A DNA stretch of 21,500 nt. Origin: a virus (Duplodnaviria; Heunggongvirae; Uroviricota; Caudoviricetes). The stretch lies in the IMG/VR virus record IMGVR_UViG_2529292759_000004. One strand, 5' to 3'. This document shows positions 8,777 through 16,746 of the stretch, piece by piece. A program made the position numbers and the translations under genes. The notes beneath the pieces are model-generated. The model was not told the DNA's origin. It saw only the letters and a list, made by a program, of their open reading frames with translations, and ran no database searches. Numbering within the stretch: the stretch's first letter is position 1; each line of letters begins with the position of its first letter.

Positions 8777-8815
8777 TGTTTACCGCCCTGTAAATTGTAG
8801 ATAAAAGTGGTTTCA

Positions 8816-13368: not shown

Positions 13369-13712
13369 CAATGGATTATTCACAGTTAAGTGATTTTGAA
13401 ATTAACAGAATGGTAGGAGACATAATTTTTAAAGGCCTTTGGGCAAGTAAACCGGAAACATCAGGGAATAACACCAACAAATGGTATTACGGAAATGCTG
13501 ATACAACTTTTGAGCCATTAAATCATTTGCCTGACTACTGCAATGATCCGAGCGCTTCATGGCCGATTATTGAGAAATACAGGATTTCTATCTTAGACCA
13601 GTTAACTGAATGGTGTGTGGATGCAAAAGGCGTAAGCCCAATATTTGATACCAGACCTCTCCGCGCCGCCATGATTGTCTTTCTCCTGATGCAGGAGGCC
13701 AATAATGCTTAG
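13365..13712 (+). CDS. Hypothetical nin-region protein (115 aa)
   Basis: ATG at 13365 overlaps the ninE stop (ATGA); occupies the slot held by ybcO in DLP12-type prophages, but I cannot confirm the identity from sequence. Confidence 0.55.
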
Positions 13713-13899
13713 CCCATCTCAATCCCTTCAATACCTGAAAGAAAGCATAGAGCGGGCTTCAATGTGCACAGAGTGGATTCTATCTAGGTTTAGCGCATAC
13801 AGAAGATTGCCGGTAAAGGGCATGCCAAGCAAGTCGATGCTGCATATGCAAAAGAATGCGCGCTGGAAGGTATGGCGAGAACACAGGTTATGTGGCTGA
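13705..13899 (+). CDS. NinF-like small protein (64 aa)
   Basis: N-terminus [18 protein letters not shown] resembles lambda NinF; C-terminus diverges; start overlaps the previous stop. Confidence 0.5.
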
Positions 13900-13918
13900 A
13901 AGAGGGGGTTATTAAGGC

Positions 13919-14281
13919 GTGAATACCTACAGCATCACATTACCCTGGCCTCCGAGCAATAATCGCTATTACCGCCATAATCGCGGGCGCACGCACGTCA
14001 GCGCAGAGGGGCAGGCATACCGCGATAACGTCGCCCGAATCATTAAAAACGCAATGCTGGATATCGGCCTGGCTATGCCTGTGAAAATCCGCATTGAGTG
14101 CCACATGCCGGATCGCCGTCGCCGTGACCTGGATAATCTGCAAAAAGCCGCTTTTGACGCACTCACTAAAGCAGGTTTCTGGCTGGATGATGCTCAGGTC
14201 GTTGATTACCGCGTTGTGAAGATGCCTGTTACCAAAGGTGGGAGGCTGGAACTGACCATCACCGAAATGGGGAATGAATGA
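13919..14281 (+). CDS. rusA: RusA Holliday-junction resolvase (120 aa)
   Basis: [42 protein letters not shown]... matches E. coli DLP12 RusA as I recall it; GTG start at 13919. Confidence 0.9.
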
Positions 14282-14418
14282 TGTTTGAGTTTAATATGGC
14301 AGAACTTCTTCGCCACCGCTGGGGGCGTCTGCGCTTATATCGTTTCCTCGGTTCTGTTTTGACCGATTACCGAATACTGAAGAATTACGCCAAAACCCTG
14401 ACAGGAACAGGAGTATGA
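14278..14418 (+). CDS. ylcG: Small protein YlcG-like (46 aa)
   Basis: Hand translation [50 protein letters not shown] overlap with the rusA stop; below the ORF-track cutoff. Confidence 0.55.
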
Positions 14419-14503
14419 AGTCAGAGATAACAATCAACTAATACTGTTTTGTTGATTTTTGCTTGTAATTGGCGTTCTGGTCTGATTTTTGTGGAGTAAG
14501 TTG

Positions 14504-14887
14504 ATGCGTGATATTCAGATGGTTCTTGAGCGTTGGGGTGCGTGGGCGGCTAATAATCATGAAGATGTGACCTGGTCGTCCATTGCCGCCGGTTTTAAGG
14601 GATTAATTCCTTCAAAAGTAAAATCTCGCCCGCAATGTTGTGACGATGACGCGATGATCATTTGCGGGTGCATGGCCCGTCTGAAAAAGAACAACAGCGA
14701 TTTACACGATTTATTAGTAGATTATTATGTATGTGGTATGACATTCATGTCACTGGCAAGTAAGCATTGCTGCTCGGATGGTTATATCGGGAAAAGGTTA
14801 CAGAAGGCTGAGGGCATAATTGAAGGGATGTTAATGGCATTAGATATCCGGTTAGATATGGATATCGTTGCTAATAATTCTAATTGA
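14504..14887 (+). CDS. quuD: Q-type late-gene antiterminator (phage 82 / DLP12 QuuD type), 127 aa
   Basis: [60 protein letters not shown]... matches QuuD as I recall it; ATG at 14504. The track start 14489 is TTG. Confidence 0.85.
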
Positions 14888-14910
14888 TATGCAATTGTTT
14901 ACTAAAAGTT

Positions 14911-14937
14911 ATTAAAAATGGGGCGTGGAAACGCCCC
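14911..14937 (-). terminator. Candidate rho-independent terminator (minus strand)
   Basis: Hairpin GGGGCG-tggaaa-CGCCCC (14920-14937) followed on the minus strand by AUUUUUAAU; about 140 nt downstream of the nmpC stop. Confidence 0.35.
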
Positions 14938-15025
14938 CAAAATAAAGGGTAATATATAACAGAAGGTTTATATAGTAAGAAGCAAGGTAGTGCTTCTAAA
15001 GGAAGTGGCTTGAGGGCTCCACTTA

Positions 15026-15065
15026 TATGTTGCGGAGGCAAAGCCTCCCGCAACATATCTTTTTC
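15026..15065 (+). terminator. Strong rho-independent terminator (plus strand), candidate tR' downstream of Q
   Basis: 15-16 bp stem ATATGTTGCGGAGGC / GCCTCCCGCAACATAT followed by CTTTTT; convergent with the nmpC 3' end at 15076. Confidence 0.55.
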
Positions 15066-15075
15066 GTAAGTCAGA

Positions 15076-16158
15076 TTAGAACTGATAAACCAGACCTACA
15101 GCGACGATGTCGTCGGTATCAATACCAGCTGTTTTGGTAAACTTACTATCGTCAATTAAGTTGATTTTGTAATCAACAAAAGTGGACATGTTTTTATTAA
15201 AGTAGTAAGTAGCACCGACATCGACATACTTGACTAAGTCTCGGTCACCATGAACACCAAGGTCTTTACCTTTTGACTGAAGGTAAGCAACAGATGGACG
15301 CAGACCGAAGTCAAACTGATATTGTGCTACTGCTTCAAAGTTTTGTGCTTTGTTTGCAATATGGTTATTACCAAAAACGGTCATATTCTGAGTTTCAGAA
15401 TATGTGGTAGCCAGATAGATATTGTTCGCATCATATTTCAGGCCTGCAGCCCATACTTCCGCATTTTTGCCGGAGGCATTGAATTTGCTCTTACCATAGG
15501 CGACCTGACCGTCAGTGCGATCTGATTTAGCATAGGTTGCACCCACGCCGAATCCTTCATACTCATAAGTAGTGGAGAAACCGAAACCATCACCATTGGC
15601 TTCAGTTACGTCAGTGCGGTCATTTTTACCCTGATACTGAGCAGCAAAGTTCAGGCCATCGACCAGACCAAAGAAGTCGTTGTTACGATAAGTTGCAACA
15701 CCAGTAGTGCGACCAGTCATGAACACATCTGTTTGGGTCCAGGTATCACCACCGAATTCTGGCAGAACGTCAGTCCACGCACCGATGTCGTATGCTACAC
15801 CGTAGTTACGGCCGTAATCGATTGAGCCGTAATCACCAAATTTCAGGCCTGCAAATGCAAGACGGGTTTTGTCTTTGGAAGAACCTTGAGATTCAGCACG
15901 GTTGCCTTTGAATTCATATTCCCACTGACCGAAACCAGTCAGTTGATCGTTGATTTGGGTTTCACCTTTGAAGCCAAGACGGGCATAAGTAGTATCACCA
16001 TCATCTGCATCATTAGAGGAGAAGTAGTGCTTGGCATTAACTTTCCCGTATAGATCCAGCTTGTTACTGTCTTTATTATAAATTTCAGCTGCCTGAGCAG
16101 ACATCGCCATCAGTACTGATGCAGCTACAGCAGAAATTGCCACTGTTAATTTTTTCAT
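15076..16158 (-). CDS. nmpC: Outer-membrane general porin, NmpC/OmpD-like (360 aa from MKKL...)
   Basis: Signal peptide [23 protein letters not shown], then AEIYNKD...; C-terminal beta-barrel signature ending ...VGLVYQF; ATG at 16156-16158 with SD AAGGG. The track start 16218 is an upstream extension. Confidence 0.9.
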
Positions 16159-16584
16159 TGTACGCCCTTTTTTTGAACTATTATTAAAAAATGATGTCAC
16201 TGCGCGATAAATATTCATCTAATCAATGTGATTATTTCAAGATGTAAGTTTTAGTTTCTCATTTAATTTGTGAAGTAGATCTCTATTTTTATCTGAACCT
16301 TTTCTATCTAATCCTATTCATGGCTCTTGTCTGAACAAAAATAAATCTATTAGCTAATTTATATTAATGGCACTTATTTATAAGTGCTCTATAATTCTTT
16401 AGCTTAATTTAAACAAACTAAAAATAACATTGGAAATTATTAACTGGTTATTTGTTGAAGTTTTCTTATGCATTTGTGGTGGTGTTTTGAACACTCGGTG
16501 GCATTCTCACAAATATCATTTAGTAGTTTACGTACGTAAAAAATTGGTTATGCTGTTAAGAGTGGTTACTTCGTCACACAGCTT

Positions 16585-16617
16585 AAACCCGCCGTCGAGC
16601 GGGTTTTTCCATTTTTT
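16585..16617 (+). terminator. Rho-independent terminator upstream of the lysis cassette
   Basis: Stem AAACCCGC / GCGGGTTT with loop CGTCGA followed by TTTTTCCATTTTTT; lies in the AT-rich 16200-16740 intergenic region. Confidence 0.5.
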
Positions 16618-16746
16618 GAGTCTCGATATTAGCTGATAACCCAATACCTGAGTTATTCACTGACTCCGAATCTGTTACGTTTCTGCCTTTATTGCGATAC
16701 GTAGTATCCCCTTAATTTACACCCGCTTTGTCTGCGAGGTGGGGTT

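Follow-up and report, generated by a model that had tools for sequence, protein, structure and literature searches.

Between the late antiterminator gene quuD and the holin gene of an apparently complete lambda-like prophage of E. coli, integrated next to icd, lies a porin gene on the opposite strand, and this arrangement raises the question of where the late transcript begins and whether it has to read through the porin gene backwards to reach the lysis genes. A sequence-only reading of the locus had placed the porin correctly between quuD and the holin, and had concluded that Q-dependent late transcription must run antisense through it. We examined the locus within a stretch of 21,500 nucleotides (the window), and its features are collected in Table 1. 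We consider it probable that the locus is a classical lc/nmpC porin cassette with its ipeX region, inserted between quuD and the late promoter pR' and insulated from the late operon.

Table 1. Features of the region from quuD to the lysis genes (positions in the window)
Feature	Position	Strand	Basis
quuD, Q-type late antiterminator, 933W/DLP12 subtype, 127 aa	14504-14887	+	Pfam, homology, RefSeq name
Porin 3' UTR, corresponding to the ipeX region	14909-15075	-	Homology to PA-2/434B spacer, fold
Intrinsic terminator of the leftward porin/IpeX transcript	Hairpin 14920-14937, then AUUUUUAAUA, to 14910	-	Terminator scan, fold
Long bulged hairpin, 10 nt past the porin stop	15025-15067	Both	Fold; on the + strand followed by CUUUUUCG
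Porin gene, nmpC/lc allele, uninterrupted, 360 aa	15076-16158	-	Porin_1 match, identity to PA-2 Lc/NmpC
Porin signal peptide, 23 aa, ending AQA	16090-16158 (coding)	-	Read from translation
AT-rich porin upstream region, 27% GC	16159-16523	-	GC content; CRP-type site inside
Late promoter pR' homologue	16524-16560	+	Alignment to VT2-Sakai 'putative late promoter'
Predicted late-transcript start (about 16561) and initially transcribed block AGTGGTTACTTCGTCACACAG	16561-16584	+	Conservation
Intrinsic terminator just past pR' (+25 to about +55)	16585-16617	+	Terminator scan, VT2-Sakai homology
Lysis cassette: essD (holin), rrrD (endolysin), rzpD/rzoD (spanins); first late genes	16747-17917	+	Pfam, RefSeq names

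The porin gene, its upstream region and its 3' UTR

The porin open reading frame spans 15076-16218 on the minus strand, and a start at 16158 (MKKLTVAIS) gives the 360-aa reading of the gene listed in Table 1. The product covers Pfam Porin_1 from end to end (residues 29-360 against model positions 1-337 of 337, E 1.9e-151), and its top matches among solved structures are OmpC, OmpK37 and OmpK36 (E about 1e-137; the PDB OmpC match, over residues 24-360, has E 5.8e-137). These end-to-end matches to solved OmpC chains suggest a 16-stranded, trimeric, solute-conducting beta-barrel. The translation has both a signal peptide, identical to the 23-residue peptide annotated in the PA-2 record, and a C-terminal aromatic residue (...VGLVYQF), as looked for in a protein assembled into the outer membrane; PADLOC returned no defence-family match for it. 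The full Porin_1 domain, the signal peptide and the C-terminal Phe are shared with OmpC, OmpF and PhoE of E. coli and OmpD of Salmonella, but the gene differs from these chromosomal ones in lying on a prophage, in having an AT-rich regulatory region of its own and in the ipeX region behind it. The sequence-only reading of an intact nmpC-like porin moron of the OmpC/OmpF family was thus borne out.

The closest known systems are lc of PA-2 and nmpC of the K-12 prophage DLP12 (qsr'), which occupy the same position in the same orientation between Q and an S21-type holin, with the same CRP-type site and the same leader from pR' to the holin; the leader in the window holds 17 nt absent from K-12. 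The window porin is 90.7% identical to PA-2 Lc, and likewise to DLP12 NmpC after removal of IS5, and has 360 aa vs. 365 aa in both; the substitutions and small indels that separate the alleles are concentrated in a few short stretches, which we read as surface-loop diversification under selection, the assignment to loops being putative. The window copy lacks IS5, unlike K-12, whose nmpC is split by IS5B (the sequence-only reading, too, had the K-12 gene disrupted by IS5), and unlike phage 434B, where IS5 interrupts the porin of a DLP12 module.

The 365 nt upstream of the gene, 16159-16523, have a GC content of 27.4% (26.5% in 200-nt windows), as opposed to 42.6% across 16524-16746, so the description of the whole of 16200-16740 as very AT-rich holds for the former part and not for the latter. 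The CRP-binding site annotated in J02580, the record of PA-2, recurs unchanged as a CRP-type site at 16266-16286, and 16190-16310 are well conserved in an alignment of variants. This site and the conservation around it point to a promoter region belonging to the cassette itself; the probable place of the porin promoter, which may depend on CRP, is between about 16185 and 16265. Because consensus scans of the minus strand for sigma-70 promoters gave no convincing match, we give the porin promoter as a region only.

Downstream of the porin stop, a spacer of 188 nt corresponds to the ipeX region; it is 93.4% identical to that of PA-2 (J02580) and to that of 434B, a carrier of the DLP12 region, and K-12 DLP12 also aligns. 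From the stop to the U tract of a Rho-independent terminator there are about 165 nt (15075 to about 14910), in agreement in position and size with IpeX of DLP12, which PMC12197685 describes as 167 nt long, contained in the porin transcript and expressed from the promoter of the porin. IpeX controls OmpC and OmpF and lowers them, according to two reports (PMC5069750; PMC12197685). The minus-strand RNA of the region is predicted to fold at -53.6 kcal/mol (z -6.7). Rfam holds no model for IpeX, and a scan of 13500-18500 at E<=1 returned two chance-level matches and no IpeX or late-leader family; one candidate that we rejected was a Staphylococcus sRNA model placed on the hairpin at 15025, whose 23 bits fall far short of its gathering score of 80.

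Two hairpins stand in this 3' UTR. The terminator hairpin at its end (minus strand, 14937-14920; dG -13.8 kcal/mol, z -3.2) keeps its stem in 7/7 variants, with variation confined to loop bases; this hairpin, followed by AUUUUU, was absent from the terminators listed in the sequence-only reading. The larger hairpin, close to the porin stop, had been listed there as a strong plus-strand terminator at 15026-15065 and as the candidate tR'. It is indeed present (15025-15059; dG -21.9 kcal/mol on the plus strand and -22.5 kcal/mol on the minus strand, z about -5.7 to -5.8, with -5.8 for the plus strand; no shuffled sequence folds as well) and it is kept in all variants in a shifted register, although a consensus terminator scan missed it, probably because of the bulge in its stem. 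Its identification as tR', on the other hand, is not supported: on the minus strand it forms the first stem of the ipeX region, without a U tract, and is part of the porin 3' UTR. As a plus-strand structure it probably has a second effect, halting transcripts that run on from quuD.

A homologue of pR' to the right of the porin

To place the late promoter we relied on phages with the same antiterminator. QuuD belongs to a known antiterminator family (Phage_antitermQ, PF06530, E 7.7e-54), matches the solved structure of Q21 (E 4e-8), and is 81% identical over 120 aa to the Q of VT2-Sakai/933W (Sp5), from which the last ~7 codons of quuD differ. In Sp5/933W, the late promoter and the final Q codons overlap, and a dRNA-seq study located the transcription start 258 nt ahead of the 3' end of tR' (PMC7547250); this mapped start fits the promoter TTTACG-16-TATCAT (position ~1538 of the Sp5 sequence that we compared). 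We found that 16524-16612 of the window align to this promoter and to the adjoining qut and first-terminator block of VT2-Sakai with 78% identity, and that a remnant of 933W-type Q 3' codons lies within the promoter part of the alignment. The homologue has a -35 element TTTACG (16527-16532), a 12-bp palindrome (16529-16540) and a -10 element TATGCT (16549-16554). It begins 1.64 kb past the quuD stop rather than immediately next to Q and lies beyond the porin, about 135 nt short of the holin gene, and the order that follows, from an intrinsic terminator to the late genes, is that expected downstream of a pR' of this Q subtype. The genes of the lysis cassette belong to the P21 holin S (essD, 16747-16962, E 2e-35), Phage_lysozyme and Phage_lysis families. 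Beyond the cassette, an iss/bor homologue is found at 17949-18245 on the minus strand.

Conservation singles out the same segment. Among seven diverged porin-carrying relatives, 16526-16600 form the sole invariant run of 75 nt and the most conserved part of the intergenic region; to the left of this run the seven variants differ by up to 32% per 40-nt bin, and by 18-22% in the two nearest bins. The core motif TAAGAGTGGTTAC is identical in 7/7 aligned pR' sequences (the window, K-12 DLP12, 434B, PA-2, VT2-Sakai, Stx2a_1447 and SfII) and is kept across four Q subtypes. It occurs exactly once in the window, with no second copy near quuD; the other match, at 8802 with 2 mismatches, is at chance level. 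Nor did a promoter scan of the plus strand find a promoter-like site in the interval from quuD to the porin (14888-15025). The -35 and -10 elements of the homologue are weak, with the conserved palindrome between them, and the best -10-like pause hexamer that follows is the poor TACTTC, vs. TACATT in VT2-Sakai; the block 16561-16584 probably carries the pause and Q-loading signals, a function that we assign from its conservation. In the J02580 annotation 16561-16581 serve as a CRP site of the porin, an assignment that we set aside in favor of the late leader, since Stx phages without a porin conserve the block but not the TGTGA half-site.

The terminator just before the holin, the second one proposed in the sequence-only reading, was recovered by the terminator scan. 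Its hairpin (16585-16606, dG about -12 to -14 kcal/mol; the T tracts extend to 16617) is the only terminator-like hairpin found between pR' and the holin gene, and its homologue in VT2-Sakai is the first 'possible rho-independent terminator'. For Sp5 the 3' end of tR' was mapped to the second terminator, at +258, and not to this first hairpin (PMC7547250), so the hairpin may be leaky or serve another role; the second terminator is absent from the window.

Where late transcription would start

The relationship of QuuD to the 933W Q, the pR' homologue at 16527-16612 and the invariant run together lead us to place the late start near 16561, so that late transcription most likely never crosses the porin; the position of the start is transferred by homology, at the identity given above. 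The two statements on the late promoter in the sequence-only reading were inconsistent with each other, and they fared differently: that 16200-16740 hold both the porin upstream region and the late promoter is supported, while the obligatory antisense reading of the porin is not, as a porin upstream of the late promoter need not be crossed backwards. We reasoned that the cassette (about 14888-16523) would have been inserted between the 3' end of quuD and the late promoter of that same antiterminator. Leftward transcription of the porin would begin at a promoter of its own, within the AT-rich region that holds the CRP-type site, and would yield an mRNA with a highly structured 3' UTR of ~165 nt (IpeX) that would end at the minus-strand terminator 14937-14910. 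Late RNA would start from pR' and meet the intrinsic terminator at 16585-16617, and RNA polymerase loaded with QuuD would continue past it into essD-rrrD-rzpD, the read-through at this terminator being presumably Q-dependent. With pR' to the right of the cassette and a leftward promoter of its own, the porin would be a lysogeny-expressed conversion gene insulated from the late operon.

Could the late promoter instead lie directly past quuD, with the hairpin at 15025-15065 as tR' and Q-modified polymerase crossing the porin antisense to the holin? A promoter directly behind Q or overlapping it is indeed what lambda, 933W and phage 21 have (10.1101/651190; VT2-Sakai annotation), and a U tract follows the strong 15025-15059 hairpin on the plus strand; yet 14888-15025 contain neither a plus-strand promoter-like site nor the conserved pR' core, the hairpin falls within the known ipeX region, and the 933W-type block with its remnant Q codons, the most conserved intergenic part, stands on the far side of the porin at 16524-16612. 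We therefore hold this arrangement to be very improbable. Somewhat less improbable, though still unlikely, is that recombination left the pR'-like block at 16527-16612 behind as a relic, that other promoters of the AT-rich region, such as an RpoE-dependent one or an ATGGCA-17-TATAAT site at 16367-16395, mainly drive the lysis genes, and that QuuD acts on their transcripts or not at all. The weak -35, -10 and pause elements of the pR' homologue speak for this, as does the match of the 16367-16395 site to the sigma-70 consensus in 10 of 12 positions, and PMC7918800 reports the DLP12 lysis operon to be under RpoE, Hha and Q, with a reporter from -121 to +650 of a start site. A relic would not be expected to remain the sole invariant 75-nt run among diverged relatives, nor to keep its core across four Q subtypes; Q-type factors need a cognate promoter-proximal loading site (10.1101/651190), and transcripts begun upstream would still have to pass the terminator at 16585-16617. 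Because PMC7918800 sets this regulatory region of the operon relative to an RpoE-linked start, more than one promoter may feed the lysis genes, and our search of the literature found no mapped essD start site or 3' end in K-12. Early transcription modified by N and running through quuD could also cross the porin antisense during induction.

A further alternative concerns the porin rather than the late promoter: the gene may be whole yet silent in the lysogen ('quiescent', through xenogeneic silencing) and have no phenotype under ordinary conditions. An upstream region of 27% GC is typical of H-NS-bound DNA, the consensus scans found no strong sigma-70 promoter, and the reference list of PMC3333887 has a title in which the nmpC of E. 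coli B is termed a quiescent porin gene. Silence is difficult to reconcile with the NmpC protein identified in the outer-membrane preparations of AIEC strains (PMC9409007) and in vesicles of Nissle 1917 (PMC6598517), with a gene kept whole in 73/80 IMG/VR relatives, and with allele differences clustered in what may be selected surface loops, and we regard it as rather unlikely, if less so than a relic promoter. Our preferred reading is an expressed, insulated cassette.

Distribution of the module and the junction between Q and pR'

The 2.6-kb module is present, at a coverage of at least 80%, in 2393/5426 complete E. coli genomes, that is, in almost half of them, and in 36 sequenced phage records, some of which label the porin OmpD or OmpC; the segment is 100% identical to those of ATCC 11775, S88 and APEC O1. 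The same order of Q, porin, pR' and holin is found in phage records such as mEp332 and the PhiR series. A survey of IMG/VR by Q alignment returned only QuuD alleles 96-100% identical to that of the window, and 73 of these 80 loci have the whole porin and the pR' motif about 1.67 kb past Q. Within that range of Q alleles, the QuuD allele, the porin and pR' travel tightly together.

Comparison with other phages shows how the cassette sits. The Stx phages (933W and Sp5/VT2-Sakai, the source of the StxS small RNA) have a homologous -35, -10, start region and first hairpin, but in them pR' overlaps the last Q codons, nothing lies between Q and pR', and the cargo (tRNAs, stx) is placed downstream of tR' in the sense direction; the window instead has 1.64 kb of antisense cargo between Q and pR', and lacks the second terminator and the StxS part. 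An insert at a junction that is abutting in 933W-type phages, with a terminator of its own, has the make-up of a moron. The porin resembles the lambda morons bor/iss and lom in encoding an outer-membrane protein, in its lysogenic expression, in a terminator of its own and in an orientation opposed to late transcription; bor, however, lies inside the late transcription unit, whereas the porin cassette lies upstream of the late promoter.

Other cargo occupies the same junction: besides porin and ipeX in the window, a candidate defence pair (PADLOC, PDC-M53A/B) is found in the Shigella phage SfII and an unclassified two-gene pair in Stx2a_1447, and the C-terminus of Q is rewritten at each of these junctions. 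It is possible, though we advance it tentatively, that the interval between the Q stop and pR' in the 933W/QuuD family is a recurrent slot for leftward, lysogeny-expressed genes outside the late unit. As a corollary, the 3' ends of the porin/IpeX and quuD transcripts would share about 150 nt (14910-15065) in opposite orientation, through which porin transcription in the lysogen could hold down stray Q expression.

The cassette itself is already known. The Lc/NmpC phage porin has been described since the 1980s, IpeX is a published small RNA of DLP12, and so common and ordinary a module matters little as a discovery. The useful outcome is a corrected map, which reassigns the supposed tR' hairpin to the porin 3' UTR. 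A cassette outside the late operon means that porin expression in the lysogen would be uncoupled from lytic induction and unopposed by Q-dependent transcription, and its role would be to replace the host porins while lowering OmpC and OmpF, altering phage receptor availability and permeability. The corrected map bears on the annotation of prophage late regions and on antisense RNA-seq signal over nmpC, and it is relevant too where whole nmpC alleles from ExPEC or AIEC strains are used to study phage receptors and antibiotic permeability.

Position of the late promoter

The window begins with an integrase gene adjoining icd and represents a lambda-like prophage; its stretch from 14400 to 17000 matches E. 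coli ATCC 11775, S88, APEC O1 and many more strains at 100% identity. Like the porin gene, the Bor-family gene is a leftward conversion gene for the outer membrane; it lies within the late transcription unit. The TonB-like ORF is a possible further moron.

Coordinates and assignments of the annotated features of the window
Feature	Coordinates	Strand	Assignment
quuD (Q-type antiterminator)	14504-14887	+	Phage_antitermQ, E 7.7e-54
Minus-strand terminator	hairpin 14937-14920, then AUUUUU	-	terminator scan
Porin ORF	15076-16218	-	MKKLTVAIS start at 16158, giving 360 aa; Pfam Porin_1
Terminator hairpin	16585-16606, T tracts after	+	terminator scan
P21-type holin gene	starts 16747		phage lysozyme, Rz-type spanins and Bor/Iss lipoprotein genes come after
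Bor-family lipoprotein gene	17949-18245	-	RefSeq label iss (increased serum survival)
108-aa ORF beyond the lysis genes	18723-19049	+	lipoprotein-type signal (LAVGC); Pfam TonB_C, E 7.3e-13; TonB family protein per RefSeq

QuuD shares 81% identity with Q of VT2-Sakai/933W and is distantly related to Q21, the structures of which define the mechanism of this Q class (10.1101/651190). A distant-mode search with 16159-16746 as the query matched ~300 Stx-phage records, the matches being confined to query positions 366-450 (window 16524-16608), a segment annotated in VT2-Sakai and SC370 as the Q end, putative late promoter, qut and first rho-independent terminator. When the window was aligned with VT2-Sakai, the -35 element (TTTACG) was common to both, the -10 read TATGCT vs. 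TATCAT, the TAAGAGTGGTTAC block was identical, and the hairpin AAACCCGCCGTCGAGCGGGTTT, followed by T's, corresponded. The -35 and spacer of VT2-Sakai lie within its last five Q codons (AGT TTA CGA TCG TAA); a remnant of such codons is kept at 16524-16540 in the window, where quuD itself ends 1.64 kb further left with a different C-terminus. The primary start of the Q-dependent late promoter, pR', was placed by dRNA-seq in Sp5 (=VT2-Sakai) 258 nt upstream of the tR' Term-seq 3' end (PMC7547250), and counting back from the second terminator of VT2-Sakai puts this start 7 nt past TATCAT, equivalent to A16561 in the window.

We compared seven porin-carrying sequences (the window, K-12, PA-2, ev099, ev243, mEp332 and Chlobot), and the longest invariant run in their porin-holin intergenic region was 75 nt (16526-16600), which is exactly the -35 through the terminator stem; to its left, at most 32% of columns varied per 40-nt bin (18-22% in the two closest bins). 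In the quuD-porin interval, neither a plus-strand promoter-like site nor a copy of the pR' core was found. From these alignments, we conclude that the cassette was inserted between Q and Q's own promoter, and that the most likely start of late transcription is near 16561, a position transferred by homology. The sequence-only reading had suggested that 16200-16740 probably carries the late promoter or qut elements, in agreement with the position of the pR' homologue; it had also held that Q-dependent late transcription must cross the porin antisense, which is not supported because the cassette appears to lie between Q and its promoter, with the homologue of the latter to the right of the porin, none between quuD and the porin, and a predicted start near 16561. 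During induction the porin might still be traversed antisense by N-modified early transcription, a process distinct from Q-dependent late transcription.

Between the -35 and -10 of the pR' homologue lies a 12-bp perfect palindrome, TTACGTACGTAA (16529-16540). Its VT2-Sakai counterpart, TTACGATCGTAA, has both halves changed with palindromy kept, and Shigella phage SfII and Stx2a_1447 carry GCGTACGC; the palindrome could serve as the site that this Q subtype binds.

The porin and the ipeX region

An intact minus-strand porin of the OmpC/OmpF family had been proposed, and the 360-aa ORF bears this out, covering the whole Porin_1 model (Pfam, E 1.9e-151), with a 23-aa signal peptide ending in AQA, a C-terminal YQF, and OmpC, OmpK37 and OmpK36 as its top solved-structure matches. 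Both Lc of phage PA-2 and, with IS5 removed, K-12 NmpC share 90.7% identity with the protein, the differences being grouped in a few short stretches that also vary among other phage alleles. The DLP12 gene is indeed split, by IS5B, as the sequence-only reading stated. The spacer from quuD stop to porin stop is 93.4% identical to PA-2 (J02580) and to 434B, a carrier of the DLP12 region, and can be aligned end to end with K-12 DLP12. The porin segment is thus an already-known element, lc/nmpC plus ipeX.

IpeX is described in reviews as a 167-nt DLP12 RNA that is transcribed together with the porin from the phage porin promoter, is then processed, and reduces OmpC and OmpF (PMC12197685, PMC5069750, PMC8065619). 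In the window, ~165 nt separate the porin stop (15076) from the U's that end the minus-strand terminator, and the minus-strand RNA between them forms a chain of hairpins (-53.6 kcal/mol, z -6.7). The strong plus-strand hairpin reported at 15026-15065 is present at 15025-15059 (-21.9 kcal/mol, z -5.8; CUUUUUCG next); rather than tR', for which it was proposed as a candidate, it is the first stem of this ipeX chain, 3' of the porin. It is kept in all variants, with its register shifted in K-12 and PA-2; on the plus strand it has a U tract of 4-5 U in all of them, and on the minus strand it has none. The porin transcript should therefore continue to the terminator at 14937-14920, and the plus-strand U tract suggests that this hairpin may stop transcripts leaving quuD just ahead of the porin gene. 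In such a two-terminator layout each strand traverses the other's hairpin, with a tail-to-tail overlap of ~150 nt.

The 2.6-kb module was found at ≥80% coverage in 2393/5426 complete E. coli genomes, in 36 phage genome records (including ev017, mEp332, the PhiR series and 434B) and in 73/80 IMG/VR loci with the window's Q allele. Among the IMG/VR loci, L033 has ~712 bp extra between Q and porin, possibly an insertion, and L028 has the porin with the pR' motif absent within the following 5 kb. The sequenced 434B isolate (OL657227; 518-4109 of its locus) carries the whole DLP12-type Q/nmpC::IS5/pR' block, IS5 lying within the porin, as a substitution, the ‘region of 434 nonhomology’, so Q, porin and pR' travel as one unit. 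Related intact alleles are expressed, since NmpC protein was detected in AIEC outer-membrane preparations (PMC9409007) and Nissle 1917 vesicles (PMC6598517).

The late leader and further promoters

RNA initiated at ~16561 would meet the plus-strand terminator, which the earlier reading gave as 16585-16617 and our scan recovered, and with QuuD would be extended into the holin gene, which begins 186 nt past the predicted initiation point. The Sp5 3' end maps to the second terminator (+258; PMC7547250), so polymerase at least partly passes the first hairpin there. Because the window carries the first hairpin alone, termination at 16585-16617 may be leaky, which would fit the basal activity reported for the DLP12 lysis genes (PMC7918800). 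The window also has only a weak -10-like pause element. The leader also has an indel polymorphism between pR' and holin: 17 nt at 16681-16697 (ctgcctttattgcgata) are present in PA-2, ev099 and ev243 and missing in K-12, mEp332 and Chlobot.

The PA-2 depositors annotated the 21-mer 16561-16581 as a CRP site (J02580); these are the very 21 nt with which the predicted late RNA would begin. We prefer the late-leader reading, as Stx phages that lack the porin keep most of the block but not the TGTGA half-site.

The DLP12 lysis operon reportedly depends on RpoE and Hha too (PMC7918800), and our promoter scan gave a 10-of-12 sigma-70 match at 16367-16395; additional promoters may therefore lie upstream of pR', and their transcripts would still hit the 16585-16617 terminator. 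An inverted repeat, GCACTTAT..ATAAGTGC (16371-16388), overlaps this match (ATGGCA-17-TATAAT, plus strand). On visual inspection, the plus-strand sequence tGAACTa-16-TCAcT at 16174-16200 resembles a sigma-E promoter aimed at the lysis genes.

Porin control and the Q-pR' junction as a cargo site

Nothing separates Q from pR' in 933W-type phages, whose cargo (tRNAs, stx) lies in sense orientation beyond tR'. By contrast, SfII (982-2596 of its locus) and Stx2a_1447 (971-2534) have a shorter Q of the same family, two leftward genes and then the same pR' core. In PADLOC, the SfII pair hits the candidate defence system PDC-M53A/B (E 2.8e-54 and 2.1e-32); no family was found for the Stx2a_1447 pair (a 343-aa protein and a 179-aa membrane protein). 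As these pairs occupy the slot where the window has the porin, the junction appears, from gene order, to take varied leftward cargo, a modest point that merits a wider survey.

The proposed AT-richness of 16200-16740 holds up to 16523 (27% GC across 16159-16523) but not for 16524-16746 (43%). Some 110-130 nt before the porin start codon, at 16266-16286, the window matches base for base a 21-nt stretch that the PA-2 record labels as CRP-binding. The second well-conserved stretch of the intergenic region in the seven-sequence comparison is 16190-16310. Promoter scans of the porin control region found no strong sigma-70 consensus, the absence of which is usual at activator-dependent promoters. 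Lc synthesis is catabolite-repressed. The receptor of PA-2 is OmpC, so a change of porin combined with IpeX would leave the lysogen protected from superinfection.
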